A stretch of 64,000 bases of DNA from Candidatus Aminicenantes bacterium (GCA_963705895.1 OY970122.1:588744-652743); one strand, 5' to 3'. Counted from the first letter of the stretch, positions 37,148-58,237 are shown. The notes: generated by a model from the letters alone, not told the origin. Made by a program: numbers and translations.

Positions 37148-37307
37148 GGGAGCTGCCGGGCGTCCATCATCGTAGAGGGTTTCCGGGTTCAACCGGATTC
37201 AGCGATCACTCACGCCGGAATTAACGTCCGATTGGCGCAGGATTGCAGGCAGGGCAACGTCGAGACTCGCACTCTGACCTGCTCAACTCCAACCTGTCTG
37301 CGAACAA

Positions 37308-37343
37308 ATTGACTTTCAATGAAAAAGTAATTACAGTTATTAC
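37308..37343 (+). promoter_or_regulatory. putative sigma70-type promoter with palindromic operator upstream of the mazEF-fusion gene
   Basis: TTGACT - 17 nt - TACAGT, only about 7 nt before the ATG (leaderless-like). Overlapping palindrome GTAATTAC AG TT ATTAC, typical of TA autoregulation operators. Confidence 0.35.
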
Positions 37344-37997
37344 ATGAAATCGACTGAGCTCAAAGTCTCTCGTATCGGAAACTCCCGCGGGGTCCGGCTT
37401 CCTGCGGCGTTGTTAAAACGATATCGCATCGGAGCTGCTGTCCTCATGGAGGAGACGAGCGAGGGTATTTTCCTGCGGCCCGTCGGCCCTGTGGTGGAGA
37501 AGCTTTCATGGGAAGATACGGTCCGCGAGATGGCGGCCGGCCGCGAAGACTGGGGCGATTGGGATGCGGTGGACGCGGACGGATTGGAAAATATTCTGTG
37601 GGCAACCGAAGGCGCCGGGAGAATAACGGAAAAGAAAGCCTGGTATCGGTCGGCTCGGCGAATCAAGCAAGAGACCGTTCTGCGTTATGAGATTCGATGG
37701 GTTTCACTGAATCCGACCCAGGGTGCGGAAATGGGGAAGAAACGTCCAGCGGTCATCGTCAGTCTGGACGCGCTCAATGAAAGATTACAGACCGTGACAA
37801 TCTGCCCTCTGACCAGCCGGTTACATCCCTCCTGGCGCTCCAGGTTGCAGGTCCGATGCAATCGACAAGAGGCCGAAATCGCAGTGGACCAGATAAGAAC
37901 TATCGCCAAATCTCGGCTGGGAGCCAAAATCGCCGCGTTGACAGAAGACGAAGCCTCCGCGTTGAGGCGGATTATCACCGAAATGTATGGCGAGTGA
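37344..37997 (+). CDS. fused MazE-like antitoxin (SpoVT/AbrB) and MazF/PemK-like endoribonuclease toxin in a single ORF
   Basis: N-terminal MKSTELKVSRIGNSRGVRLPAALLKRYRIGAAVLMEETSEGIFLRPV... with acidic EDWGDWDAVDADGLENILW tail (MazE/PemI-like). C-terminal ...RYEIRWVSLNPTQGAEMGKKRPAVIVSLDALNERLQTVTICPLTS... (MazF/PemK-like). No stop or canonical internal start between the two halves. Confidence 0.65.
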   Translation: MKSTELKVSRIGNSRGVRLPAALLKRYRIGAAVLMEETSEGIFLRPVGPVVEKLSWEDTVREMAAGREDWGDWDAVDADGLENILWATEGAGRITEKKAWYRSARRIKQETVLRYEIRWVSLNPTQGAEMGKKRPAVIVSLDALNERLQTVTICPLTSRLHPSWRSRLQVRCNRQEAEIAVDQIRTIAKSRLGAKIAALTEDEASALRRIITEMYGE

Positions 37998-38015
37998 CCC
38001 GAAGCCCCGTTCAAA

Positions 38016-38043
38016 ATCTTGACATCTTTACAAACAGAGTGAT
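38016..38043 (+). promoter_or_regulatory. near-consensus sigma70 promoter (TTGACA - 16 nt - TGnGATAAT) upstream of the integrase remnant
   Basis: TTGACA at 38016-38021 and extended -10 TGATAAT at 38036-38043; a TTG start with GGGGGA RBS follows at 38072. Confidence 0.3.
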
Positions 38044-38071
38044 AATCTCCATCTATATTAACGGGGGATAT

Positions 38072-38206
38072 TTGAAGACAAGACAGGAAGTAGTTTTCGT
38101 CGCGGAACAAAAAGCCGCTTATTCCGCCCGGCCTCAAAGGTTGCTCGATCGACTTCGCGAGGCGTTCCGCATCCGACATTATAGCCGCCGTACGGAAGAG
38201 ACCTAA
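38072..38206 (+). pseudogene. tyrosine recombinase / integrase N-terminal fragment (IntI/XerD-like), truncated after about 44 codons
   Basis: (M)KTRQEVVFVAEQKAAYSARPQRLLDRLREAFRIRHYSRRTEET* matches the conserved integrase N-terminus (IntI1: ...[24 protein letters not shown]...). The rest of the recombinase is absent in all frames downstream. Confidence 0.4.
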
Positions 38207-38326
38207 TGACCGATCGGGCACTCGTTTCACAAGCGTCTAATTCATCACATGAAGTCGCATCCGGGTTGTTATATGGATCTATGTAAACATTGTTAGCTCA
38301 ACGTAAACATTAGAGGGAGACTCTCA

Positions 38327-39490
38327 ATGACAAAGAAGACTACGCCAATCGGAAGTGAAACAGCGGCAAAGAGGGCATACCTGAAGCAATCAGATGTGCC
38401 TTCCGCTTCCTTAGAAGAAGCACTTCGAATGCCAGAGGCAATCCTCGATCATTATGCAGGAAAGGCGACTACACCATTACAGGTTGCCAAAGCCTTGAAC
38501 GTGGATCCAAAAGGCTCACAGATTCGTGTTCTTTCGGGGGCCGCAATGGCTTTTGGCCTCATCGAAGGGGGTGCGCAAGCAACTAACATTTCTGTGACCG
38601 ATCTTGCACGACGAATTCTTCGCCCTAAAGAGGAGAATGATGATCTGGCTGCAAAACGAGAGGCAGTTTTGAAACCCAGAGTTTTCGGTGATTTTCTTCG
38701 CCAATATGACGGTAATGCCTTCCCCCGTCGAGAGATCGCATTGAATGTACTCGAAGAAATGGGAGTACCACGTGAGAAGACAGAGGAGGTTCTTGAACGA
38801 ATTGATGCTAGTGCACGCTCCGTAGGCTTTATCGCGGAGATTAGGGGGAAAAATTATGTCACTCTCCAAGGAGCCGCGACTTCCATTACCGCAGATGTAT
38901 CAAGTTCCGAGATAAGTCCAGAACCCGAGCAAGAGAAACTAACCGCACCGGAGATCAAGAGATTGACGATCCCCCCTCCTATCGTACAGCCGAAAGGAGC
39001 TGCACTTACTGCTGCTATCGCAGACGACCAGAGACGCCGCCGGGTGTTCATTACGCACGGTAAAAACAGAGACTTGGTAGAGCCAATTAAAAAACTCTTA
39101 GAGTATGGTGAGCTAGAGCCAGTGGTTTCTGTCGAGAAGTCATCTGTATCCAAACCCGTCCCTGAAAAAGTTCTGGATGACATGAGGGGCTGTGGAGCGG
39201 CAATTATCCACGTAGAGGTGGAGCAAATGATTGTCGACAGGGAGGGGAATGAACATGTTTTATTAAATCCCAATGTCCTAATTGAAATAGGTGCCGCCAT
39301 GGCTTTCTATGGTCGGCGGTTTATTTTATTAGTCCGGGAAGGGGTGAAACTGCCATCGAATCTTCAGGGCCTTTTTGAGGTACGGTACGGTGGCGATACC
39401 TTGGATGCAACTGCTACTATTAAGCTACTCGAAGCTATTAAAGATATCAAGAACTATGATCTCCCCACACAACCAGAGGTTGAGAGCTAA
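38327..39490 (+). CDS. two-domain protein: unknown N-terminal domain + C-terminal TIR-like nucleotide-binding domain (PF10137 / CAP12-like); candidate defence effector
   Basis: AGGGAG RBS. C-terminus RRVFITHGKNRDLVEPIKKLLEYGELEPVV...NPNVLIEIGAAMAFYGRRFILLVREGVKLPSNLQGLFEVRY matches the VFIVHG...LGLEPI...RQNVIFELGYFIGKLGR.RV..L...GVE.PSD..G pattern of the TIR-like family. Markedly lower GC than flanking genes. Confidence 0.55.
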   Translation: MTKKTTPIGSETAAKRAYLKQSDVPSASLEEALRMPEAILDHYAGKATTPLQVAKALNVDPKGSQIRVLSGAAMAFGLIEGGAQATNISVTDLARRILRPKEENDDLAAKREAVLKPRVFGDFLRQYDGNAFPRREIALNVLEEMGVPREKTEEVLERIDASARSVGFIAEIRGKNYVTLQGAATSITADVSSSEISPEPEQEKLTAPEIKRLTIPPPIVQPKGAALTAAIADDQRRRRVFITHGKNRDLVEPIKKLLEYGELEPVVSVEKSSVSKPVPEKVLDDMRGCGAAIIHVEVEQMIVDREGNEHVLLNPNVLIEIGAAMAFYGRRFILLVREGVKLPSNLQGLFEVRYGGDTLDATATIKLLEAIKDIKNYDLPTQPEVES

Positions 39491-39500
39491 CTAATGAATC

Positions 39501-39526
39501 CAGCGGACGGCTTTCAGCCTCCGCTG
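39501..39526 (+). terminator. stem-loop between the TIR-like gene and the next ORF (possible attenuator/terminator)
   Basis: CAGCGGACGGC-TTTCA-GCCTCCGCTG imperfect inverted repeat 10 nt after the stop; no T-tract; followed by a strong RBS (GAGGGAGGAGG) for the next gene. Confidence 0.25.
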
Positions 39527-39557
39527 TTCCGTACGTAATGAGGGAGGAGGCCTTTGC

Positions 39558-40094
39558 ATGAGGCTATGTGCTTTTGGTGGCGTGGTTCTTGCTATGGTCG
39601 CGCTATCGGGGCAAGCGATGGAATCTCCCGCCCAGAGTCCGACGCCTGCTGAGATCAAGGCTGTGGACGCGTTCATAAAAACCCAAGAGCGACTCCGGAG
39701 CACGCAGTACGTCTCGGATAACTTGCTTGAGTTTCGCGAGGGGCGCCAGTATGCGTTTGACGAAGCCGGCGGGAGCGGCAAGACGATACTCGCTGTGCGT
39801 TATACTTTGGAGGAGGGCAACAACTGGACTCTATTCCTCGCAGCCTTTTCAAGGCCGACAATGAAGTGTCAAGCCCACGCACGGGTGGGTGGCAAGGGCT
39901 ATCGCAACGTTGATATTAGCGGGGTTAAGGGCGATATGATCTATTTGAAGATCGAATTGTACTCAACCTACGACGCTCTCTGTTGTCCCAGCGTCCCTGG
40001 CTCAACAATCTACGAACTGACCGACGATTCGCTCGTCGAAAAGGAACTTCGGGTCGACTGCGAGGGTTGGAGGCCGCCAGAGAGGCGAAGATGA
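39558..40094 (+). CDS. hypothetical secreted protein (signal peptide, 4 Cys)
   Basis: MRLCAFGGVVLAMVALSGQA signal peptide; strong RBS; low GC; no recognisable domain. Confidence 0.45.
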   Translation: MRLCAFGGVVLAMVALSGQAMESPAQSPTPAEIKAVDAFIKTQERLRSTQYVSDNLLEFREGRQYAFDEAGGSGKTILAVRYTLEEGNNWTLFLAAFSRPTMKCQAHARVGGKGYRNVDISGVKGDMIYLKIELYSTYDALCCPSVPGSTIYELTDDSLVEKELRVDCEGWRPPERRR

Positions 40095-40266
40095 ACTTTG
40101 GCTCGTCAGGCACTTGTCAAATGCTATGGAAATATTCGAATATTATAAGAAATAATAACCCAGCAAGGATAAAATGACCGGCTAACCAGGCGCAGTATCT
40201 GACCGCAAATCCACGGTGCACCATTGCGCAAGGTGAGCGTGCCGCCGACCGGACAAGAGGAATATC

Positions 40267-41133
40267 ATGATCGACCCAGGGTTGAGCGGAAAAAGCATGT
40301 TAGTGACGGGCGCCAATAACCCGAGAGGGATCGGTGCGGCGACGGGAAGGGCATTCGCCAGGTTGGGGTGTAAGGTTTTTCTCCATTTCTTCCGAGAGCC
40401 TGCTCCGGCCGGCAAACCGCCTGATATTCCCGGCGAGGAGCTATATCACGCGCTGAATGCCCGATCGGCTGAAGATGTTGTTGAGGAAATCAGAAAAGCC
40501 GGAGGGACGGCGCACAGTTGGGAGGCGGACCTTGCGGATCCAAACACCATTCCCCAACTGCTCGACCAAGCCGAACATGCCGTCGGACCCGTCGAAGTTC
40601 TTGTGAACAACGCAGCGCACTGCGTCTGGGATACGTTCCTCCCGAAGGCAGGCAACGTTTATGAAGAGGACTCCGCTTATCAAGCGCTGCCGCTGACGCC
40701 ATCGAGCCACGATGCGCACTTTGCCATCAACAGCCGGGTGCCGGCCCTGCTTATAGCCGAATTTGCCCGGCGTCGCATTGCCTCCGGGGCTGGATGGGGA
40801 CGGATCATCAACATCAGTACCGACGCGTCTTCTTCGCACCCCGGGGCCATCTCGTATGGCGCAAGCAAACACGCGCTCGAGTCTTACTCGCGAGCTGCTG
40901 CGTTGGAGCTGGCACGTTATGGAATCACGGTCAACGTGATCGCGCCGGGCGCCATTCAGACCGGTTGGATTTCGCCGGCGCTTGAGGCACAGTTAGCCAA
41001 ACGTTTTCCTCTCGGTCGCATTGGTCTCCCGGACGATATCGCAGATGTCGTGGTCTTCCTCGCATCAGAGCAAGCGCGCTGGGTCACCGGCCAAACACTT
41101 TATGTTGGGGGCGGCAATGTCATGCCGCTCTAG
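40267..41133 (+). CDS. short-chain dehydrogenase/reductase (SDR) family oxidoreductase
   Basis: TGANNPRGIGAATGRAFARLG (TGxxxGIG Rossmann), NNAA motif VLVNNAAH, catalytic Y..K (ISYGASKHALE), ...IAPGAIQT.... Confidence 0.8.
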   Translation: MIDPGLSGKSMLVTGANNPRGIGAATGRAFARLGCKVFLHFFREPAPAGKPPDIPGEELYHALNARSAEDVVEEIRKAGGTAHSWEADLADPNTIPQLLDQAEHAVGPVEVLVNNAAHCVWDTFLPKAGNVYEEDSAYQALPLTPSSHDAHFAINSRVPALLIAEFARRRIASGAGWGRIINISTDASSSHPGAISYGASKHALESYSRAAALELARYGITVNVIAPGAIQTGWISPALEAQLAKRFPLGRIGLPDDIADVVVFLASEQARWVTGQTLYVGGGNVMPL

Positions 41134-41187
41134 CGCTCGAGGGTTGGCTAGGGGATAGCTGAACTTGACGGCTGCACATATCACATC

Positions 41188-41718
41188 ATGGCTGAAGTTT
41201 GTCGTTATTTGAAAAACATGAACTTGGAATTCACGACAGTGCTTAATCAAGAACGAGGCACTATCGCGGCACTGCTGAAGCGGGCCTACGCCGATTTGGT
41301 TAAGAGCAATCCATTGCTATGGGAACCTGAGCAGGCGAAATGGGATCAATACGATCATGATGTATTTGCGCAGCCGCAGACTATCGGGGCCTGCATATTT
41401 CTTACCTGGCTGGATGGCCGGATAGCCGGGTTTGGATCGTGGGACCCGCGACAGAGGCCTCGCTTCGGCATCGTCGGACACAACTGTATATTGCCGGAGT
41501 ATAGAGGAAAGGGTTTGGGCAAACTGCAAATTCGTGAAATCCTTCGACGCTTTCAAGAAGTGGCGATTAAGACGGCTAAAGCTTCTACCAATGACAGCCC
41601 CTTCTTTGTTCCCGCTCAGCGGATGTATGAGGCGTGCGGATTCCGAGAAATCCGACGTATTCCCTGGCATCGCGATCCAGGACAGAGGATAATCGAATAC
41701 GAGAAGGAAATCGGCTAA
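41188..41718 (+). CDS. GNAT-family N-acetyltransferase
   Basis: ...FGIVGHNCILPEYRGKGLGKLQIREILRRF... acetyl-CoA binding motif (R/Q-x-x-G-x-G/A); alternative start at 41218. Confidence 0.7.
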   Translation: MAEVCRYLKNMNLEFTTVLNQERGTIAALLKRAYADLVKSNPLLWEPEQAKWDQYDHDVFAQPQTIGACIFLTWLDGRIAGFGSWDPRQRPRFGIVGHNCILPEYRGKGLGKLQIREILRRFQEVAIKTAKASTNDSPFFVPAQRMYEACGFREIRRIPWHRDPGQRIIEYEKEIG

Positions 41719-41791
41719 AAAAGAGCTCCAGCGGACATGGACGAGCCGCGCCGCTGAGCTATGACGTTAGATCGCAGGGGAGGTGGGGAGC

Positions 41792-42178
41792 ATGTCAGAC
41801 GAATCAGCTGTGAGAGAAGTCATCGCCAAGATCGCCGCCGCGTGGCGCCTGAAGCAATTCGACGGGCTTGATGAGTGCTTCCATGAAGACGCTGTTATTG
41901 TTGGGCCGGGCTACGTCGAGGTTGGCCGCGGCAGAGCGAAGTGCGCCGAAAGCTACAGAGAGTTCGCAACCAATGCGGCGGTTCTGTCGTATCACGAGTC
42001 TGGGCATACGCTTCGAATATGGGAGACAACGGCAGTTCACACCTTTGCCTGGGAAATGACATACCAACGCGACCAAGGGCCGAAGCATGAGACAGGCACG
42101 GATCAGCTCGTGTTCCAGCTCAACTCAGCCGGTTGGCAGCTCGTGTGGCGTTATATGTATTTCGAACCATCGAGCTGA
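41792..42178 (+). CDS. NTF2/SnoaL-like fold protein (DUF4440-like), hypothetical
   Basis: GGAGGTGGGGA RBS then MSDESAVREVIAKIAAAWRLKQFDGLDECFHEDAVIVGPG... typical of the SnoaL-like/NTF2 superfamily. Confidence 0.55.
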   Translation: MSDESAVREVIAKIAAAWRLKQFDGLDECFHEDAVIVGPGYVEVGRGRAKCAESYREFATNAAVLSYHESGHTLRIWETTAVHTFAWEMTYQRDQGPKHETGTDQLVFQLNSAGWQLVWRYMYFEPSS

Positions 42179-42213
42179 CCGACTAGAGTACGCTCATGTG
42201 ACAAATCACAAGG

Positions 42214-42687
42214 ATGAATTGCATGTATATCTTAATGATCATTCTGCTGATGTTCGTCTTCCCAATAGCTTCCGTTCTCATGGAGACATTCATTTTCAAG
42301 AGCACCATAGGAACCGCACTCTTAATCGGGAAATGGTTTGCTTTTTGGGCTGTCGGTATCAGGCTAGGCTTAGCTGGTCTACGCCAGATTGTTAGTCCCA
42401 AGTTCACGGCCCAACGGATATTTGGAATCAAGAGCGCTGAACCATTGGTCATAGTTCAAGAGTTAGGGTTCGCAAATCTATCGATCGGCATATTGGGAAT
42501 CATCACCATTTTTAATAGCGCTTGGATTACGCCTGCTGCAATCGCCGGCGGCCTCTTTTATGGACTTGCGGGCATAAGGCATCTAACGAGGAAGAGGAAG
42601 AACCTGCTTGAGAACAGCGCCATGCTCTCAGATTTATTAATGTTCATCATTTTGGCCATCTATCTTATAGTCATCATGGCGCATTAA
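42214..42687 (+). CDS. small integral membrane protein (4 TM), hypothetical
   Basis: Very hydrophobic (MYILMIILLMFVFPIASVLMETFIF..., ...LLMFIILAIYLIVIMAH); lowest GC of the island. Confidence 0.45.
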   Translation: MNCMYILMIILLMFVFPIASVLMETFIFKSTIGTALLIGKWFAFWAVGIRLGLAGLRQIVSPKFTAQRIFGIKSAEPLVIVQELGFANLSIGILGIITIFNSAWITPAAIAGGLFYGLAGIRHLTRKRKNLLENSAMLSDLLMFIILAIYLIVIMAH

Positions 42688-42733
42688 TATTCTGCATCCT
42701 AACACCTGTTCCGCTTGAGGCGGGCGCGGCCGA

Positions 42734-50901: not shown

Positions 50902-52062
50902 TTATCGCTCGGGCAGAAGATTCTCTTTTTTTAAATGGAGGACTCGCTGTCCTTCCGCGTTTTTGATTTCCATGCGGATTTCCCGGATGCCGCTATCGTT
51001 GAGTTGATGGAGAAGATCGAACAGGTCCGACCCGCTCAGCGTTTTCCCGTTCAACGATACGATCTCATCCTCGGGGGCGACACCGGCTCTATCGGCAGGC
51101 GAACCTGTCCAGACACCACGAACCGAGATCTTTCCGCCATCGTTCAAATGAACCTGCATGCCGAAGGAGAATTCGTTGGCCGGAATCGGAGATCCCGATT
51201 GAGGGATGAATCGTATTTCGTCTTTGGGATAATTGATGATCGTTATATATGAGGCCAAAAAATCCCTACCCAGGAGAAGCATCGACAGCACAGAGGGAAG
51301 TTCGGCGGAAAAGGCCAGGAGATTCTGAACTTCCGCGCTTCCCAAGGAGATGGAATCGATGCGCCCCAGGTAGTTGTCCCGGGAGGTTGTCCCGGGCCAG
51401 TGGTAGATATGTCCCTTGGCTTTGATCCAGCCTCCTTTTTCGGAGATTTCCAATTTTTTGAGGATGTCGGGGGGCAAAACCAGGGGATAGGGCTGACCGG
51501 TATCCACCATGGCTTCCGCTTCATAATTTCCGTTCAATTTGCATTTGAGTACCGGAGCAGAATTCACGGGATGATGGGTGAATTTGAGCAAAAAACCTTT
51601 TTGCGGATCTCCCGTGACCGAGGTGTCATTGGAAAGAACGAGAGTTTTCCGATGGTAATCGAGGGTGACCTTGAACCGGTCCAGCAGGTCGGATCCGATC
51701 AAACCGTGGATCGTGACGCCCGGATATGTTTCGAACATCTTAAATAACACCGGAGAGGCAACGCAAAAAACGGAATCAATCCGGTAATTGCCGATATCCA
51801 GACTGTTCATTTTGACCATCGTGCCTTTTCGTTTTAATTGAAGTTTATCCGCGGTTACACTATCCAGCATCGTTACACCGCCGGTATCGACAATAAAATT
51901 ATACTCTTCGGGATGATCGTTGATTTTGCCCTTGATGAAAATAATGTGTCCTTTCAGTTCAAAAGGTATGATGCCTTCCTTATGGGCCGTTTCATTCTGT
52001 GGATAGGCGAAGAGCGCGGAGACGAAGACAAGAACGCTGAAAACAAAGGCGGTTTTTCTCAT
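50902..52062 (-). CDS. secreted retropepsin-like aspartic protease (two DTG motifs) with C-terminal PDZ domain
   Basis: Start MRKTAFVFSVLVFVSALFAYPQ (signal peptide); IVDTGGV and MVDTGQP catalytic motifs; C-terminal PDZ (...ISVRGVWTGSPADRAGVAPEDEIVSLNGKTL...). Confidence 0.6.
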   Translation of the reverse strand: MRKTAFVFSVLVFVSALFAYPQNETAHKEGIIPFELKGHIIFIKGKINDHPEEYNFIVDTGGVTMLDSVTADKLQLKRKGTMVKMNSLDIGNYRIDSVFCVASPVLFKMFETYPGVTIHGLIGSDLLDRFKVTLDYHRKTLVLSNDTSVTGDPQKGFLLKFTHHPVNSAPVLKCKLNGNYEAEAMVDTGQPYPLVLPPDILKKLEISEKGGWIKAKGHIYHWPGTTSRDNYLGRIDSISLGSAEVQNLLAFSAELPSVLSMLLLGRDFLASYITIINYPKDEIRFIPQSGSPIPANEFSFGMQVHLNDGGKISVRGVWTGSPADRAGVAPEDEIVSLNGKTLSGSDLFDLLHQLNDSGIREIRMEIKNAEGQRVLHLKKENLLPER

Positions 52063-52283
52063 GTTGCGACTCGTTGGCTTGGATTTGAAAAGCATCCTAT
52101 CGCATCTCTGCCGGAAAAAGCAACTGTCTGCGTCACCTGTTTTATGGCATCTTCTGTGAAGCAAATCATCATCGTCGTCCTAGCTGGGGGAAGCCCTTTC
52201 CCGGCGAAATAAACGGCAGTGAGGTCAAGACGGGCTAAAACGATAGAAGATGAAAGCGCGGACGCGACCCTGCTCTTTGTTCT

Positions 52284-52460
52284 CTATTTGGTCTTGCGCA
52301 AACCGGCTACTCCGTTAGCTAGAAAAGCACCGGAGGCTACGCCGCTGAAAAAAAAGATAAGGAATTTCGCCAGGGATAATTCACTTTGAGTGAAAAACAC
52401 GACGGCGACGCACAGAAAGACAAGGCTTGAAAGAAAAAAGCTAAAGGAACGTTTTTTCAT
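52284..52460 (-). CDS. small hydrophobic peptide (58 aa, 2 TM), hypothetical
   Basis: Found by reading the minus strand: MKKRSFSFFLSSLVFLCVAVVFFTQSELSLAKFLIFFFSGVASGAFLANGVAGLRKTK with GGAGGA RBS 9 nt upstream. Below the ORF-track length cutoff. Confidence 0.3.
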   Translation of the reverse strand: MKKRSFSFFLSSLVFLCVAVVFFTQSELSLAKFLIFFFSGVASGAFLANGVAGLRKTK

Positions 52461-52568
52461 CTCTTAAATCCTCCGCCTCTCAACATTTAAATAAATAGCG
52501 TCCATTCGAACAATTTAATTTGAATTAAATAGCACAATAATCAAAGGTTATCAATGATGATTCCGTTG

Positions 52569-52994
52569 TCACTTCATCGGTATCGTCCCTTTTACGGTCT
52601 GGGTTTGGTGGGCGCCCTTGGTGGTGTGCACCAGGAAGCCGTCCTGCCCGGGCAGCCAGATTTCAGCCAGCACATAAACTGTGAAGTATTCCGTGTATGA
52701 CGGCTCGAAGTTTCCCACCGCATCGAAGACAAGCTGGGGTTCCGCAAGGGGCGGCTGGGGTTGCGGCAACCTATTGATGAAGGGGACCTGAACTTCCTTG
52801 GCGGTCGAAATATAAAGAAAGCTGATCTTCCCTTCAGCCGTCAAGGCTACTTCGTAATCACCCGCAGGGAACTTTTGGTTTCCCGATTCGAATTTGAACG
52901 GGACCTTGAACGTCCCCTGGGCATAAGCCGAAGCATAGCCTGCGATGAGAACAAGGCCCATGGCCGCGAGAATCCAAACAACTTGACGCTTCAT
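52569..52994 (-). CDS. hypothetical secreted protein
   Basis: AAGGGGAAG RBS; MKRQVVWILAAMGLVLIAGYASAYAQ signal peptide; no recognised domain. Confidence 0.45.
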   Translation of the reverse strand: MKRQVVWILAAMGLVLIAGYASAYAQGTFKVPFKFESGNQKFPAGDYEVALTAEGKISFLYISTAKEVQVPFINRLPQPQPPLAEPQLVFDAVGNFEPSYTEYFTVYVLAEIWLPGQDGFLVHTTKGAHQTQTVKGTIPMK

Positions 52995-53008
52995 CGATCT
53001 TCCCCTTT

Positions 53009-54388
53009 TTACCGGATACTCGCCCACGGCACGCCCGCCACCGGTCCATCATCCGCCGAGGCCAGGGTCGTCGGAACGCCGTTCTTGAGCGCGTCTTCCA
53101 TGGCCATGACGAACGTATCGATCTCCTCGAGCGTGGTGTATACGTTGGGCGAAACCCGGAGGGCCTGGTAATCGAAGACCTGGTTCGGCGGGGCGCCGCC
53201 GACCAGCGGGACGGCGATGATCCGGTACTTGTCCATCAGGAACTTGGCCAGGTCCCTGACGTCGATCCCCTCGACGCTGACGGCGCACACCGCCCACGTT
53301 TCCGGCGGCTCGCCGAGGTTCGACAGGATCTTGACCCGCGGATATTTCTTGAGGGCGTTCGCCCAGCGAAGCGTCAGGTAGCGCAACCGGGCCGCCTTGC
53401 GCTCGCCCCCGATGGCCTGATGGAAGGCCAGAGCTTCGCCCAGGGCCGCCCGGATGGCCCAGGGATGCGTCCCGATGGACTCGAACTTGCGGATATCGTT
53501 GTCCTGCTGTTCGGGGGCGGCCTGCAGAGGCCAGAACCTCGGGATCATTTCCCGGCGTACGTACAGGCAGCCGTTGCCGATCGGCGCCAGCAGCCACTTG
53601 TGAAGGCTGACACCGTAGGCGTCGCACTCGAGGTCCCGCAGCTTGAACGGGAATTGACCCAAGGCGTGGGCGCCGTCGACGATCGTGACGATCCCCTTCG
53701 ATCGGGCCAGGCGGGAGAGCCGCTGAACCGGGAACATCTGGGCCGTCAGGTTGGTCACGTGGCAAAAATGGAAGACCTTCGTCCGCGGGGAGATGGCCTT
53801 CTCGAACCGCTGGTAAAGATCATCCCCAGTCGTCGGCACCGGGAACTGAAGGCGAGTGACCTTGATTCCCTCGCGCCGCAGGCGCTGGTCCCAGGTCGTC
53901 AGCATGCGCGGGTAGTCCTGCTCGGTAGTGATGACCTCGTCGCCGGCCTTGAGGTCGATCCCGTTTTGGACGATCTGCAGCGACTCGCTGGCGCCGCGCG
54001 TCAGGGCCAGCTCTTCCGGTTCGCATCCGAACTCCGCCGCCATCCGGAGACGGATCGTCTCGATGTTCTTGGCGACCATGCCCTGGTAATGGACGGGCAG
54101 CATGTTGATCATTTCCATGTACCGAAACTCCGATTCGAGCACGACCCTGGGGCACGGGGCGGTGAACCCGTTGTTCAAGTTGATAAGTTCGCGGTCGAGC
54201 TTGAAGGCGAGCTGGATCTCCCTCCAGTAGAACTCGTCCCTGGCCACTTCCTCGGGCAGACGGTCCGCGACCGATTGCGAAGCGGCCTCGACCCCCTCGA
54301 GTCCGCCGGGCTTGAGCGCATATCCCGCCGCCCCCACGGCTCCGCACAAACGCAGAAACGATCGTCGATTCAACATCTCAGACTTCAT
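53009..54388 (-). CDS. Tat-signal class V aminotransferase-fold PLP enzyme (cysteine desulfurase/isopenicillin-N-epimerase-like)
   Basis: Twin-arginine signal MKSEMLNRRSFLRLCGAVGAAGYA; class V fold (...FHFCHVTNLTAQMFPVQRLSRLARSKGIVTIVDGAHALGQFPFKLRDLECDAYGVSLHKWL...) with PLP-lysine context SLHKW. Confidence 0.75.
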   Translation of the reverse strand: MKSEMLNRRSFLRLCGAVGAAGYALKPGGLEGVEAASQSVADRLPEEVARDEFYWREIQLAFKLDRELINLNNGFTAPCPRVVLESEFRYMEMINMLPVHYQGMVAKNIETIRLRMAAEFGCEPEELALTRGASESLQIVQNGIDLKAGDEVITTEQDYPRMLTTWDQRLRREGIKVTRLQFPVPTTGDDLYQRFEKAISPRTKVFHFCHVTNLTAQMFPVQRLSRLARSKGIVTIVDGAHALGQFPFKLRDLECDAYGVSLHKWLLAPIGNGCLYVRREMIPRFWPLQAAPEQQDNDIRKFESIGTHPWAIRAALGEALAFHQAIGGERKAARLRYLTLRWANALKKYPRVKILSNLGEPPETWAVCAVSVEGIDVRDLAKFLMDKYRIIAVPLVGGAPPNQVFDYQALRVSPNVYTTLEEIDTFVMAMEDALKNGVPTTLASADDGPVAGVPWASIR

Positions 54389-54695
54389 GCTTGACCTCCT
54401 CGAACTCCGGTTTACGAGGATTGTAGTCCACGTCTCAAAAGGACGTCAAGGAATGCTTGGAGGAATGCCCTCTCCAAATCTGATAAGCAAGGAGGGTCTC
54501 GGACGGCCTGCACCCGTTTTCCATGGAGGACTCATGAAATAAAGGTCAAGGAAGGATTGCTGATAATCCTACCGGCGGTGATCGGAGCGCCAGGCCGGGT
54601 TCAAGGATGCGAACGAGATCGGGCCCGTCATGAGGACCCTGATCTATTGGCACCGGGACAGGATGGGGGTGGCGATCAAGCCGACTCGGCCTTGT

Positions 54696-55388
54696 TCAGG
54701 ACAGAGAATAATCCGCGGCAGCCCGGGCATGGATGGCCGTCGTGTCGAAAAGAGGAATTTCGTAGTCCTCCTGTTTCACCAGCAGGGGAATTTCCGTGCA
54801 GCCCAGGATGATGCCTTGGGCGCCTCCGTCCTTGAGCCTGGAGATGATCTCCTGAAATATCTTCTTCGATTTCTCTTTGATCTGACCCAGACAGAGCTCA
54901 TCGTAAAGAATGGCGTGAATGAGTTCCCGATCCTTTTCTTCGGGGATCATCACCTCGAGGCCGTGTCTTTTCCGCAACCTCCCCTTATAGAAATCCTGCT
55001 CCATGGTGAAACGGGTCCCCAGGAGGCCCACCCTCGCGAGGGAGCGCGATTTGACGGCTTCGGCCGTGACGTCGGCGATGTGGAGAAGAGGGATGCGGAT
55101 GGAATCCTGAACCCGGTCGGCCATCATGTGCATGGTGTTGGTGCAGATGACGAGCAACTCCGCGCCGGCTCTCTCGACCCTTTGGGCGGCGTCGATCATC
55201 AACACGGTCAACTCCTCCCATCGGCCCTCGTGCTGCCGGCTCTCCACCTCTTGAAAATCAACAGAATACAGGACAATTTTGGCCGAATGGAATCCGCCCG
55301 CTTTTTCTTTCACGCGCTGGTTGATGATTCGGTAGTATTCGAGAGTGGATTCCCAGCTCATTCCGCCCACCAGGCCGATGGTTCTCAA
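54696..55388 (-). CDS. aspartate/glutamate racemase-family protein (amino-acid racemase)
   Basis: MRTIGLVGGMSWESTLEYYRIINQ... and ...GAQGIILGCTEIPLL... (two Cys/Thr catalytic motifs of the Asp/Glu/hydantoin racemase family). Confidence 0.8.
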   Translation of the reverse strand: MRTIGLVGGMSWESTLEYYRIINQRVKEKAGGFHSAKIVLYSVDFQEVESRQHEGRWEELTVLMIDAAQRVERAGAELLVICTNTMHMMADRVQDSIRIPLLHIADVTAEAVKSRSLARVGLLGTRFTMEQDFYKGRLRKRHGLEVMIPEEKDRELIHAILYDELCLGQIKEKSKKIFQEIISRLKDGGAQGIILGCTEIPLLVKQEDYEIPLFDTTAIHARAAADYSLS

Positions 55389-56072
55389 CTTTTCCTCCGA
55401 AACCGTCTTTTACTGATGGCTACGATTCATCATTATATAAGAAAAACGAATAAAAGCGGCAGAGGGAATTCCGCTAGCACAATGTCCAATTGAAATCCCT
55501 CCTATCCGATTCCAATGCCCCCGGTTTTTTGAAAACCAAAGGCAGCAAGTGTTGTTGATACCGACAAGGTGTTCCGTCCGGCAGCCCCGCGCGAGAACAT
55601 CTTTTTTTAGCGCCGCCGGACCGGCCTTGAACGCATATCTCAAGTAGGTTGAGCGTTCCCACTATCAAGAGATGATGCCGATGACGGGGACCGGGCCATA
55701 CCCCGCCTCGATAACGTTTCTCGGATGGCCCGATTCTTGCTAATCTATGGGGGTGCCTTGATTTATCCAGAGTTTTTCTGGAAGGCATGTATGTTTTCTT
55801 TACTTTTATGAATAACGACGAAAAAATATTTACCCGCTCGGCCTTCCCGAGGACCTACGACCGTGGGGCCAACTGTTCATCCGGCAATCTCAAATGACGG
55901 GTGTTGATTTATGATGGGGACAGAGCGGGCCGATGAAAACGAGACTCGAGCTGGAGCAGTTCGTTCGGGCCGCCCTGGCGTTGTGCCCAAGAATCCCGGC
56001 ATCAGCCGAACAAATAAAAATGAATGGGGAGGCCGGACTCCGTTTCTGATTTCAATCTGGGAGGAACACACG

Positions 56073-56678
56073 ATGGAACGAAGAGAGTTCTTTGAGTCGG
56101 TGGGAAAGTGCGGTCTGTGCGCCGGGCTGGCTCCGGCCCTGGGTCTGGTCTCGGTCTTCGGCGGTCAGGAAAAACCCGCGGCGGCGGAGCCGGAGGCGCC
56201 TTCACATTCGCTGAAGGAGCGTGTGGATTTCGCCGAGAATTGGGTCCGCAATTTCATGCGGGCGCTCGATGAAAACCTGGATGGACCGGTCCGAGCCAGG
56301 GTCATGGAAGCCAACGGCCGGGCTTGCGCCCTTGACTACATGAAGAAGGCCGACATCCAGATCAAGCCCGTGGCATTCGACCAATGGCTGGAGAGGGTCC
56401 AAAAGCGGCCTAGCGACGGAACGGTCCGGGTCGAGGGCCGGACCATCTATTATCAATACCTCACCAACTATCAAGGCAAGCCCGCGCCCGAGGGAAGCTG
56501 CCTTTGCCCTCTGGTCGAAACCAAGCCGGCGGGGCTGTCAGGGACATACTGCCATTGCTCGGTCGGATACATCAAGGAGTTTTTCAGCCGGACCTTCGGC
56601 CAGCCGGTCAAGGTCGAGATCGTGAGCGCCACCCTGCGGGGCGGCAAACGCTGTCAGTTCAAGATCGAGTTGGCTTAG
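56073..56678 (+). CDS. Tat-signal hypothetical protein with C-terminal Cys cluster (CxCP...YCHCS)
   Basis: GGGAGGAA RBS; MERREFFESVGKCGLCAGLAPALGL (RR-motif signal); possible metal-binding Cys pairs. The ORF is open upstream to 55911. Confidence 0.5.
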   Translation: MERREFFESVGKCGLCAGLAPALGLVSVFGGQEKPAAAEPEAPSHSLKERVDFAENWVRNFMRALDENLDGPVRARVMEANGRACALDYMKKADIQIKPVAFDQWLERVQKRPSDGTVRVEGRTIYYQYLTNYQGKPAPEGSCLCPLVETKPAGLSGTYCHCSVGYIKEFFSRTFGQPVKVEIVSATLRGGKRCQFKIELA

Positions 56679-56789
56679 TCGACTCAGGACGCTCCGTCCG
56701 GGCCAGTCCGTTTGGGTCAGGCCTAATGACATCCCAATTCCGTGGGAGTGGTTTCTTCACGGGTACTTCGTTTTCTGCTGAGCCGGCGC

Positions 56790-56927
56790 GTGACTATCAG
56801 TCTGGGCGTCGCCACCGTCATCCCCGACCGCAGCTCCGACGCGCTGACCCTGCTGACGATGGCCGACCAGGCGCTTTACAAGGCCAAGGTCAATGGCCGG
56901 GACCGGATGGAGGGCCCGGCCGGCTGA
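56790..56927 (+). pseudogene. GGDEF (diguanylate cyclase) domain C-terminal fragment
   Basis: ...VTISLGVATVIPDRSSDALTLLTMADQALYKAKVNGRDRM matches the last about 45 residues of a GGDEF domain (TvSiGvA...LL..AD.ALY.AK..GRNR). No upstream part exists in any frame. Confidence 0.35.
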
Positions 56928-57109
56928 CCGTCTTGTCCCGGCCATCCGATGCAATGGTCCCATCTTTGACCTAGGAAAAAGGAATACATCCCGTTTTTTC
57001 ACCATTGAGACCTGAGTTTCCGCGCGCGATCTCCGGGCCTTTCGCCTCGAAAAGGCACGAGAGGCGTCATCGTTTGACCGACTCGGAATCCGGGTGCTAA
57101 AATTCGGTC

Positions 57110-58237
57110 ATGAAGAAAGGCCCCAGGACTCAGCATAAAATTTCAGCGCCGAGACCGGCCCGGCGCGCTCTCTCCGCTCTCCTGTTCTTGCTTTCGGTCG
57201 CCGCTCTCGGCTTTGGACCCTGGGGATCCGCGCAAACCCACGCTCCCGCCGAAAAGCCGCCGGCCCATCATACGGCCCATGGGTTCCGCAACCTTTATCC
57301 CGACACCCATCGCCTGGGCGTGATCACGTCGCTGCGCTATCTGCTCGGCTTGTATCCCAGGGAGATCCCGGCCATTCCTCCGGACCAGGTCCCGCCATAT
57401 AAGCCGGACATCGTCGCCCCCAACCTCGGCCTCATCCACCATCCCGACCCGGGACGCATCCAGCTCACCTGGATCGGACATTCCTCCTTCCTGCTTCAGC
57501 TTAACGGGCTCAACATCCTGCTCGACCCGGTTTATAGCGAGCGGGCCTCGCCGTTCTCGTTCGCCGGCCCAAAAAGGCTAGTCCCTCCGGGGGTCCGTTT
57601 CGACGATTTGCCGCCCATCGATGCGGTCATCATCAGCCATAATCATTTCGACCACCTGGACAAGCCAACCATCAAGCGGCTGGGAAACAAGCCCCGCTAT
57701 TTCATCCCGCTCGGGCTCCGGACCTGGTTCAGCCGCCTGGGGATCGACCGGGTCTCGGAGCTGGACTGGTGGCAGAAGTCATTCATCGGCGAGACAGTGC
57801 TGTGCTGCGTCCCCGCACTGCATTGGTCGGGACGGGGGCCGTTCCGGCGGAACCATGAATTGTGGGCGGGCTGGGTCATTGAAACTAAAAAGGGCCGGAT
57901 CTACTTCGCCGGCGACAGCGGCTATTCTCCTTATTATAAGGAGATCGGAACGCGGCTCGGTCCGTTCCGATTGTCAATGATCCCCATCGGGACCTACCGG
58001 CCGGCCTGGTTCTTCAAGCCCATGCACCAGGATCCGGCCGAGGCCGTGCAGGCCCACCGGGACGTCGGTTCGGCTTTTTCCGTCGGGATGCACTGGGGGA
58101 CCTTCCGAACGAGCACCGAGCCTTCGGGGGAGCCGCCAATCTTTCTGAAAAAGGCCTTGGCCGAAGCCGGCCTGCTCGAAGACCGGTTCGTAGTTATGAA
58201 GTTCGGTCAGACCCTGGTGCTTGACTGGCAGCCTTGA
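57110..58237 (+). CDS. MBL-fold metallo-hydrolase (NAPE-PLD-like Zn-dependent hydrolase), secreted
   Basis: Signal peptide; ...IQLTWIGHSSFLLQLNG...DAVIISHNHFDHLD... (HxHxDH motif) ...YFAGDSGYSP.... Confidence 0.75.
   Translation: MKKGPRTQHKISAPRPARRALSALLFLLSVAALGFGPWGSAQTHAPAEKPPAHHTAHGFRNLYPDTHRLGVITSLRYLLGLYPREIPAIPPDQVPPYKPDIVAPNLGLIHHPDPGRIQLTWIGHSSFLLQLNGLNILLDPVYSERASPFSFAGPKRLVPPGVRFDDLPPIDAVIISHNHFDHLDKPTIKRLGNKPRYFIPLGLRTWFSRLGIDRVSELDWWQKSFIGETVLCCVPALHWSGRGPFRRNHELWAGWVIETKKGRIYFAGDSGYSPYYKEIGTRLGPFRLSMIPIGTYRPAWFFKPMHQDPAEAVQAHRDVGSAFSVGMHWGTFRTSTEPSGEPPIFLKKALAEAGLLEDRFVVMKFGQTLVLDWQP

Follow-up and report, generated by a model that had tools for sequence, protein, structure and literature searches.

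Which genes belong together at this locus, and what could their products do outside the cytoplasm? The locus lies in a stretch of 64,000 nucleotides (nt) from a Candidatus Aminicenantes bacterium (GCA_963705895.1 OY970122.1:588744-652743), the whole of which is called here the window; the names given to homologues likewise place it in Candidatus Aminicenantes (Acidobacteriota). A preliminary description had singled out positions 53009-56678 as a cluster of three genes, coding for a class V pyridoxal 5'-phosphate (PLP) enzyme with a twin-arginine signal, a racemase of the Asp/Glu family and a cysteine-rich protein with a second twin-arginine motif, and had suggested a periplasmic pathway that modifies D- or sulfur-containing amino acids. 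Pfam and NCBIfam matches, together with the listing of open reading frames (ORFs), confirm all three ORFs and their assignment to the families named. The conserved unit, however, is made of a promoter, the PLP gene and a small gene, which form a two-gene operon across the Aminicenantes, and the one gene with a true link to the PLP enzyme (52569-52994) falls beyond the left boundary of the flagged region. The reading that we consider probable, though well short of certain, is that of one conserved two-gene exported PLP system accompanied by two bystander genes; the three-gene "pathway" is an accident of adjacency.

Loci were collected through the PLP protein (80 species-level genome loci), through the small downstream protein (80 metagenome loci) and by exact protein look-up (10 further loci), which gave a pooled set of 161 non-redundant loci covering 1.8 Mb. 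Clades of the PLP enzyme were delimited by average-linkage clustering, and signal peptides were called by motif inspection together with conservation across orthologues. The features discussed below are collected in Table 1.

Table 1. Position and nature of the features at the PLP enzyme locus, numbered from the first nucleotide of the window.
Feature	Position	Strand	Basis and remarks
PLP/small-protein operon	52569-54449	-	Own promoter, strong ribosome-binding site (RBS) and two genes
Sec-signal protein, 141 amino acids (aa), obligate partner of the PLP gene	52569..52994	-	Partly outside the flagged coordinates; all-beta
Tat-signal (twin-arginine translocation) class V, fold type I PLP-dependent enzyme, 459 aa	53009..54388	-	Pfam, NCBIfam and PDB matches
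Sigma-70-type promoter, TTGACG-18 nt-TACAAT	54420..54449	-	Consensus scan and conservation; conserved leader and GAGGAGG RBS downstream
YgeA-like cofactor-independent amino-acid racemase, 230 aa	54696..55388	-	Pfam, TIGR00035 and PRK10200 scores
DUF6144/V4R-fold protein, 201 aa	56073..56678	+	Six invariant Cys; RR-containing N-terminal hydrophobic segment

In 81 of 85 loci the PLP gene is followed by the small gene, and each of the four remaining contigs stops less than 250 nt from the PLP gene. Seen from the other side, 75 of 80 small-gene loci have the PLP gene upstream, and four of the five exceptions have less than 200 nt of upstream sequence. In the window the ATG of the small gene lies 14 nt past the PLP stop codon, preceded by a GGGGA site, and the median gap between the two genes is 31 nt (n = 86 loci). 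Besides the small protein, no flanking gene family recurs in more than 6 of the 80 species-level loci. The near-constant pairing, the short gap and the lack of any other recurring flanking family are the reasons why promoter, PLP gene and small gene are treated here as one unit.

This unit has its own expression signals. In an alignment of 74 distinct orthologous upstream regions, TTGAC[GA]-N18-TA.AAT and AGGAGGT are kept whatever gene stands further upstream, and the window resembles its relatives at the nucleotide level over exactly 52584-54456, some relatives adding a separate block over the racemase gene. Rfam searches of the full window and, with a permissive threshold, of 52300-57200 found no riboswitch or other RNA in the 307-nt spacer upstream of the PLP gene or in the 685-nt spacer beyond the racemase gene. 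The earlier remark that the PLP gene is not a member of a textbook operon is correct. Despite belonging to one operon, the two genes differ in GC content at third codon positions (GC3), which is 0.86 in the PLP gene versus 0.65 in the small gene. This contrast parallels that of their conservation, since mean pairwise identity over 464 species pairs is 81% for the PLP enzyme and 55% for its small partner, which evolves much faster. Moreover, in matched locus pairs the PLP enzyme is at least as conserved as ribosomal proteins S6, L9 and L25. As a side observation, one metagenome-assembled genome, CAVXWN01, carries two copies of the module (L044 and L058, on contigs 14016 and 14024).

The PLP enzyme, for which 218 relatives were found among GTDB species genomes, is a member of Pfam family Aminotran_5 (PF00266), with 153.8 bits against a cut-off of 21.5 over residues 71-426. 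Its N-terminus, MKSEMLNRRSFLRLCGAVGAAGYAL, carries a twin-arginine motif within a signal peptide of approximately residues 1-36 (nt 54281-54388); the segment MKSEMLNRRSFLRLCGAVGAAGYALKPGGLEGVEAAS matches the twin-arginine consensus, and motif inspection reveals a Tat-type layout, with NRRSFLR and LCGAVGAAGYAL and with VEA followed by AS. Of 84 orthologues, 80 have the pattern RRxF[LIVMF]; its consensus is SRRxFLR, mostly as WSRR[SA]FLR. Furthermore, the nearest relative of solved structure is PvdN (5i90, phmmer E 3e-27), and the alignment of the two proteins opens at the RR motif, so that the twin-arginine signal noticed earlier is also aligned with that of PvdN. On the strength of these motifs, the enzyme is very likely exported by Tat.

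In the active site, the Schiff-base lysine K264 (in SLHKW), H241, Y159 and R411 are invariant in 128 distinct orthologues, and D238 (D238GAH), the aspartate that faces the pyridine nitrogen, is present in 127 of the 128. K264 and D238 align with their counterparts in PvdN and in a SufS-like protein, and R411 with the arginine that binds the substrate carboxylate in SufS-like proteins. Since these three residues are retained, the substrate would be an amino acid, or a moiety bearing free alpha-amino and alpha-carboxylate groups. Persulfide chemistry is not expected: the loop G397-G-A-P-P-N, which aligns with the a-G-t-h-C-a-q-P catalytic loop of 4w91, contains no Cys in any of the 128 orthologues. 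In addition, the invariant Tyr159 occupies the position of the PLP-stacking His of SufS and PvdN. Because the persulfide-forming Cys is absent and a Tyr takes the place of the stacking His, the protein is neither a cysteine desulfurase, as the preliminary description would have had it, nor a PvdN orthologue. Indeed, its NCBIfam scores all fall far under the cut-offs, being 131 bits versus 475 for SufS (TIGR01979), 119.3 versus 650 for PvdN (NF051467, the second-best NCBIfam match) and at most 79 versus more than 500 for the IscS and NifS models, which argues for a distinct family within the SufS/PvdN/C-DES branch.

PvdN, which tailors pyoverdine (5i90, 5hh9), resembles the PLP enzyme in its class V fold type I architecture, its aligned twin-arginine signal, the lack of a desulfurase Cys and the motifs DG.H..G and HKWL..P.G.G, but the similarity is only remote, and PvdN has the stacking His where the PLP enzyme has Tyr159. 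The PLP enzyme occurs in Aminicenantes rather than pseudomonads, stands outside any pvdMNO or pyoverdine context in the 80 species-level loci, and has an obligate small partner gene, whereas PvdN has not been described with one. The SufS/NifS/IscS desulfurases and the C-DES/EgtE proteins (COG0520) share the fold, the equivalents of K264 and D238 and the SufS-type carboxylate arginine, and provide the top NCBIfam matches; yet the catalytic Cys of the SufS THCAQ loop is missing from GGAPPN, the module comes without suf, isc or nif partner genes, and the enzyme is predicted to be exported rather than cytoplasmic. CefD, the isopenicillin N epimerase, is likewise a class V enzyme without the desulfurase Cys, and its substrate is an amino-acid moiety that is tethered but keeps its alpha-amino and carboxylate groups free. 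Here, in contrast to CefD, there is no beta-lactam cluster, and the CefD name borne by homologues is an automated annotation.

The small partner, which has no cysteine, begins with a conserved Sec-type signal consisting of MKR, a hydrophobic core and AxA (AYA) followed by Q. Twenty columns of its alignment are invariant, mainly in G94-N-F-x-P-S-Y-T-E-Y...T...Y and in K126-G-x-H (the TKGAH motif). The protein has no match in Pfam, NCBIfam or PDB sequences. A profile search of 1.84 billion cluster representatives returned 1,068 matches, 172 of them at E <1e-10, which belong to a broader family of signal-peptide proteins of about 130 aa with the motifs PF.F..G...PAG.Y, ITRLA, LVFDKVG..Y.LSEVWLPG.DGY and K..H.H; nine or ten sampled members of this family found nothing in the same Pfam, NCBIfam and PDB searches. 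Compared with the broader family, the subfamily linked to the PLP enzyme has an additional inserted loop, FEPSYTEY. In the 1.8 Mb of loci and the window, the only further copy of the family is a partial one in L124.

One member of the broader family was seen in a different setting. In L175 (1211-5405), protein P0376 is encoded 180 nt downstream of a gene for a 1,202-aa fusion of Aminotran_1_2 and PEPcase_2. Here, for the second time, a PLP enzyme adjoins a member of the small-protein family; the observation is a single one, other contexts of the family being available only on short contigs.

The racemase is a facultative neighbour of the module, and in the window it lies outside the transcription unit of the PLP gene. 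It belongs to the aspartate/glutamate racemase superfamily, with 158 bits against a cut-off of 31 for Pfam Asp_Glu_race (PF01177) and 255 against 93 for TIGR00035, and contains the two catalytic-site motifs, CTNTMH and GCTEIP. Like E. coli YgeA and B. subtilis RacX, it is of the broad-specificity, cofactor-independent, cytoplasmic type with TNTMH and GCTE motifs; unlike YgeA, it stays below the equivalog cut-off of PRK10200 (293.7 bits versus 417, over the full length), and no link to an exported PLP module has been described for YgeA, a slow homoserine racemase of broad specificity (PMC8142540). The PLP gene had been placed immediately downstream of the racemase gene: the two are on the same strand in that order, but 307 nt separate the racemase stop from the PLP start and hold the conserved promoter and the GAGGAGG RBS. 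Neither the window racemase nor a paralogue fused to the operon elsewhere has a signal peptide, so that the racemases cannot act in the periplasm. Together with the PLP gene's own conserved promoter, this speaks against a periplasmic pathway formed by all three flagged genes.

Racemase genes are found near the module in two separate PLP clades. In the clade of the window they are orthologues (76-82% identity) situated upstream of the PLP gene. The distance is 145-311 nt in the window, L096 and L097, 1.7 kb in L108 and 5.2 kb in L088-L090; L009 and L086/L095 lack the gene. L086, the closest relative with 94% identity in the PLP enzyme, has neither the racemase nor the DUF6144 gene beside its PLP gene. 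In a clade from peat and soil, the gene that comes next after the small gene in 12 of 122 loci is a paralogue of 43% identity, with gaps down to 0-16 nt; in L170 its ATG follows the small-gene stop codon immediately, making a three-gene operon, and this paralogue is a TIGR00035 member that scores 192 bits with PRK10200. Overall, a racemase gene is directly adjacent in 13 of the 161 non-redundant loci, in two different positions. Some 20 racemase matches occur in the 1.8 Mb of flanks, all within 5.2 kb of the module; for a single-copy gene, our own rough estimate of the expected number is about 0.5. The matches trace to perhaps 2-3 events. A racemase has thus been recruited twice independently, as two paralogues in two positions, and a chance origin is unlikely. 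The link proposed between racemase and PLP enzyme recurs in two clades (L096, L097, L108 and L088, and the downstream paralogue), but it is missing from most relatives, the closest one included. Two independent recruitments into an otherwise context-free module give a weak hint of D/L-amino-acid chemistry.

The racemase orthologue of L088-L090 (103-1354), 5 kb from the PLP gene on its upstream side, has a gene for RidA (Ribonuc_L-PSP) directly behind it. PLP enzymes release reactive enamines and imines, and proteins of the RidA family quench these.

The third flagged gene codes for the cysteine-rich protein. Its start is most likely at 56073 rather than 55911, since GGGAGG precedes an ATG there by 7 nt and the homologues all begin at this point, with MERREFF or M-x-R-[RK]-x-F. 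The RR motif and the cysteines that had been noticed are present, in MERREFF, CLCP and YCHCS, and the gene is indeed divergent from the racemase gene; however, with the start at 56073 a gap of 685 nt lies between the two, and in the wider DUF6144 subfamily the N-terminal motif is R-[RK], mostly RK, which makes Tat export of the protein uncertain. In 40 homologues, which represent several phyla, six cysteines (C85, C143, C145, C160, C162 and C194) never vary. The 255-aa ORF that starts at 55911 falls just under the Pfam cut-offs for DUF6144 (PF19641; 27.7 bits versus 28.8) and V4R (PF02830; 27.4 versus 31), and close and distant homologues have precomputed PF19641 matches. A profile search of the PDB found no sequence homologue of DUF6144, and literature searches returned nothing relevant on it. 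An AlphaFold2 model (predicted local distance difference test score 85.6) was compared with known structures by Foldseek, which retrieved Bet3/TRAPPC3, the phenol-sensor domains of DmpR/MopR/PoxR and the V4R protein MJ1460 (E 2e-4 to 5e-3, TM scores 0.4-0.6). The modelled fold is of the V4R/Bet3 type and agrees with the weak Pfam matches to DUF6144 and V4R. The protein shares this fold with the V4R/Bet3 (TRAPPC3) and DmpR/MopR/PoxR domains, and some of its homologues are named "predicted hydrocarbon binding protein" by the Joint Genome Institute; it differs from those domains by an extra N-terminal export or anchor segment and by the six invariant cysteines. A ligand-binding fold of this kind is not an obvious sulfur or redox enzyme. 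It is best described, from this model, as a probable exported or anchored ligand-binding protein that merely stands beside the racemase gene.

Conservation of the neighbourhood in related genomes was a check that the preliminary description itself had named as able to refute the three-gene cluster. It was run, and the DUF6144 gene occurs in 0 of the 161 non-redundant module loci; conversely, four loci of DUF6144 homologues contain no PLP or racemase gene. In two of the DUF6144 loci, another gene stands close upstream. In L091 (1040-3559), a homologue of 82% identity starts 1 nt after a gene for a 618-aa protein with Peptidase_S41 and Rhodanese domains, and in L092 (3080-5597) a homologue of 57% identity starts 14 nt after a gene for a 635-aa protein that has no Pfam match. 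The large upstream gene may be the real partner of DUF6144, although no gene of this type adjoins the DUF6144 gene in the window.

How might the two-gene system work? The motifs and the precedent of PvdN suggest that the PLP enzyme would bind PLP and fold in the cytoplasm before its export by Tat, and the signal of the small protein suggests separate export through Sec. The two proteins could then act together in the periplasm. Our best guess at the reaction is an elimination, or an epimerisation or racemisation, on a periplasmic amino-acid substrate, for which the small protein might be a dedicated accessory subunit, its invariant loop serving to present the substrate or to regulate the enzyme. 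The cytoplasmic YgeA-like racemase would be an optional add-on, recruited twice, and the DUF6144/V4R gene merely an adjacent gene. Both the type of reaction and the role of the partner, be it accessory subunit, substrate presenter or inhibitor, are speculative, and to no specific chemistry do we give more than a minority chance.

Three points weigh against this picture. In L145 (924-1346) the small gene has 923 nt of upstream sequence and yet no PLP gene; this is the sole real exception to the pairing, and the loop of this small protein reads SYTEHFT versus SYTEYFT elsewhere. The racemase link exists in only about 10% of loci, phylogenetically clustered, and could amount to local synteny plus one lucky fusion. 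Finally, neither protein has an experimental or annotated function, so that everything said of the chemistry is inference.

The alternatives differ in which genes they unite and in the reaction that they assign to the enzyme. That racemase, Tat-exported PLP enzyme and Tat-signal cysteine-rich protein form one periplasmic pathway for modification of D- or sulfur-containing amino acids would account for their adjacency in the window, for the RR motifs of two of the three, and for the return of a racemase near the PLP gene in some relatives. We regard it as very improbable: DUF6144 is in no module locus and its homologues sit in unrelated contexts, the racemases would remain in the cytoplasm, the 307-nt and 685-nt gaps and the conserved promoter split the genes into separate transcription units, the closest relative lacks both neighbours, and the DUF6144 protein has a V4R/Bet3 ligand-binding fold. 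Another alternative is a D/L-amino-acid system, in which an exported epimerase or racemase, or a D-specific lyase or transaminase, would play a role like that of the periplasmic broad-spectrum racemases, while a cytoplasmic YgeA-like racemase would work on the same amino acid. The recruitment of a racemase in two clades, once into a three-gene operon with gaps of 0-16 nt, and its excess around the module over the estimated expectation speak for such a system; some homologues are named isopenicillin-N epimerase by their sources, and conservation at a housekeeping level would suit a role in the cell envelope. Still, a racemase is missing from the surroundings of the module in about 90% of the loci, its occurrence is uneven even within the two clades, the epimerase name is only a KEGG-Orthology-style label, the PLP enzyme and the racemase are in different compartments, and enzymes of the YgeA type are slow and broad in specificity (PMC8142540). 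A D/L system is a possibility to be kept in mind, though the odds are against it.

We consider it unlikely that the enzyme is a C-S lyase of the periplasm, similar to C-DES, EgtE or cystine lyase, that would break down cysteine, cystine or a cysteine conjugate to pyruvate, ammonia and sulfide or persulfide. This reading, which takes up the sulfur-amino-acid part of the preliminary description, is favoured by the family matches: SufS, SclA, EgtE and NifS-type models lead the NCBIfam list, there is a partial match to Cys_Met_Meta_PP, and C-DES (1elq, E 1.7e-16) is among the PDB matches. Moreover, C-S lyases of the C-DES/EgtE branch work without a persulfide cysteine, and a Tyr at the PLP-stacking position is typical of lyases of Cys and Met metabolism. 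But the family scores are all far under their cut-offs, no conserved neighbour is related to sulfur, and similarity at this level cannot separate C-S cleavage from other PLP reactions. Less probable again is a PvdN-like tailoring enzyme, whose target would be the amino-acid end of a siderophore or another secondary metabolite that is secreted or periplasmic. PvdN is the best match of solved structure, aligned from the Tat motif on, its model ranks second in NCBIfam, and it is itself a Tat-exported PLP enzyme (PMC6206403); against this stand a score of 119 bits versus 650, the replacement of the stacking His by Tyr, the lack of any non-ribosomal peptide synthetase, pvdM, pvdO or biosynthetic neighbour in the 80 species-level loci, and a near-universal presence with conservation at the level of ribosomal proteins, which is unlike tailoring enzymes. 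Another way to see the two proteins is as an enzyme and its inhibitor, a loop of the small beta-protein plugging the PLP active site in the manner of periplasmic lysozyme or protease inhibitors, so that a harmful activity is held in check until needed. The invariant, subfamily-specific loop GNFEPSYTEY in an otherwise fast-evolving protein and the strict co-encoding of the two genes would fit this arrangement, to which we assign a small probability, similar to that of the C-S lyase.

Under the two-gene reading that we favour, the locus adds to a known but very small kind of enzyme. PvdN and PtaA of Pseudomonas are periplasmic PLP enzymes exported by Tat in a folded state with the cofactor bound, and PLP chemistry in the periplasm is treated as unusual (PMC6206403); our literature searches found no Tat-exported PLP enzymes besides these two. 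The PLP enzyme of the Aminicenantes is a new, third family, unrelated in context. No fewer than 218 species-level genomes from an uncultured class carry this third family, which is conserved at the level of ribosomal proteins and comes with a small secreted partner without known relative or fold. The reaction, once worked out, would show which PLP chemistry Aminicenantes need outside the cytoplasm, and the role of the partner, once known, would give a function to a large orphan family of secreted proteins. We can go further only tentatively, with a proposal that has a real chance of being right but a greater one of being wrong: the module could be an unrecognised periplasmic system that defines the Aminicenantia lineage and has a housekeeping role, such as editing or production of D-amino acids or modification of amino-acid moieties in the envelope. 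Its partner would then represent a new fold and a new kind of accessory subunit, and the broader family, with its roughly 1,000 clusters (50% identity) and no Pfam model, a general class of partners of periplasmic enzymes.

Several other features of the window deserve mention. The 685-nt spacer between the divergent racemase and DUF6144 genes (55389-56072) holds no convincing ORF and shows no similarity in relatives. The products of the other genes beside the module look exported as well, a 420-aa protein with two aspartyl-protease domain matches and a PDZ domain (50902-52164) and a 375-aa metallo-beta-lactamase-fold hydrolase with a hydrophobic N-terminus (57110-58237); the adjacency of neither to the module is conserved. 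Further away, the block 37300-42700 has a low GC content (0.50-0.56), GC3 of 0.43-0.64 and small ORFs, with an AbrB/MazE-like start, MKSTELKVSRIGNSRGVRLP, at 37344, and may be an acquired island.

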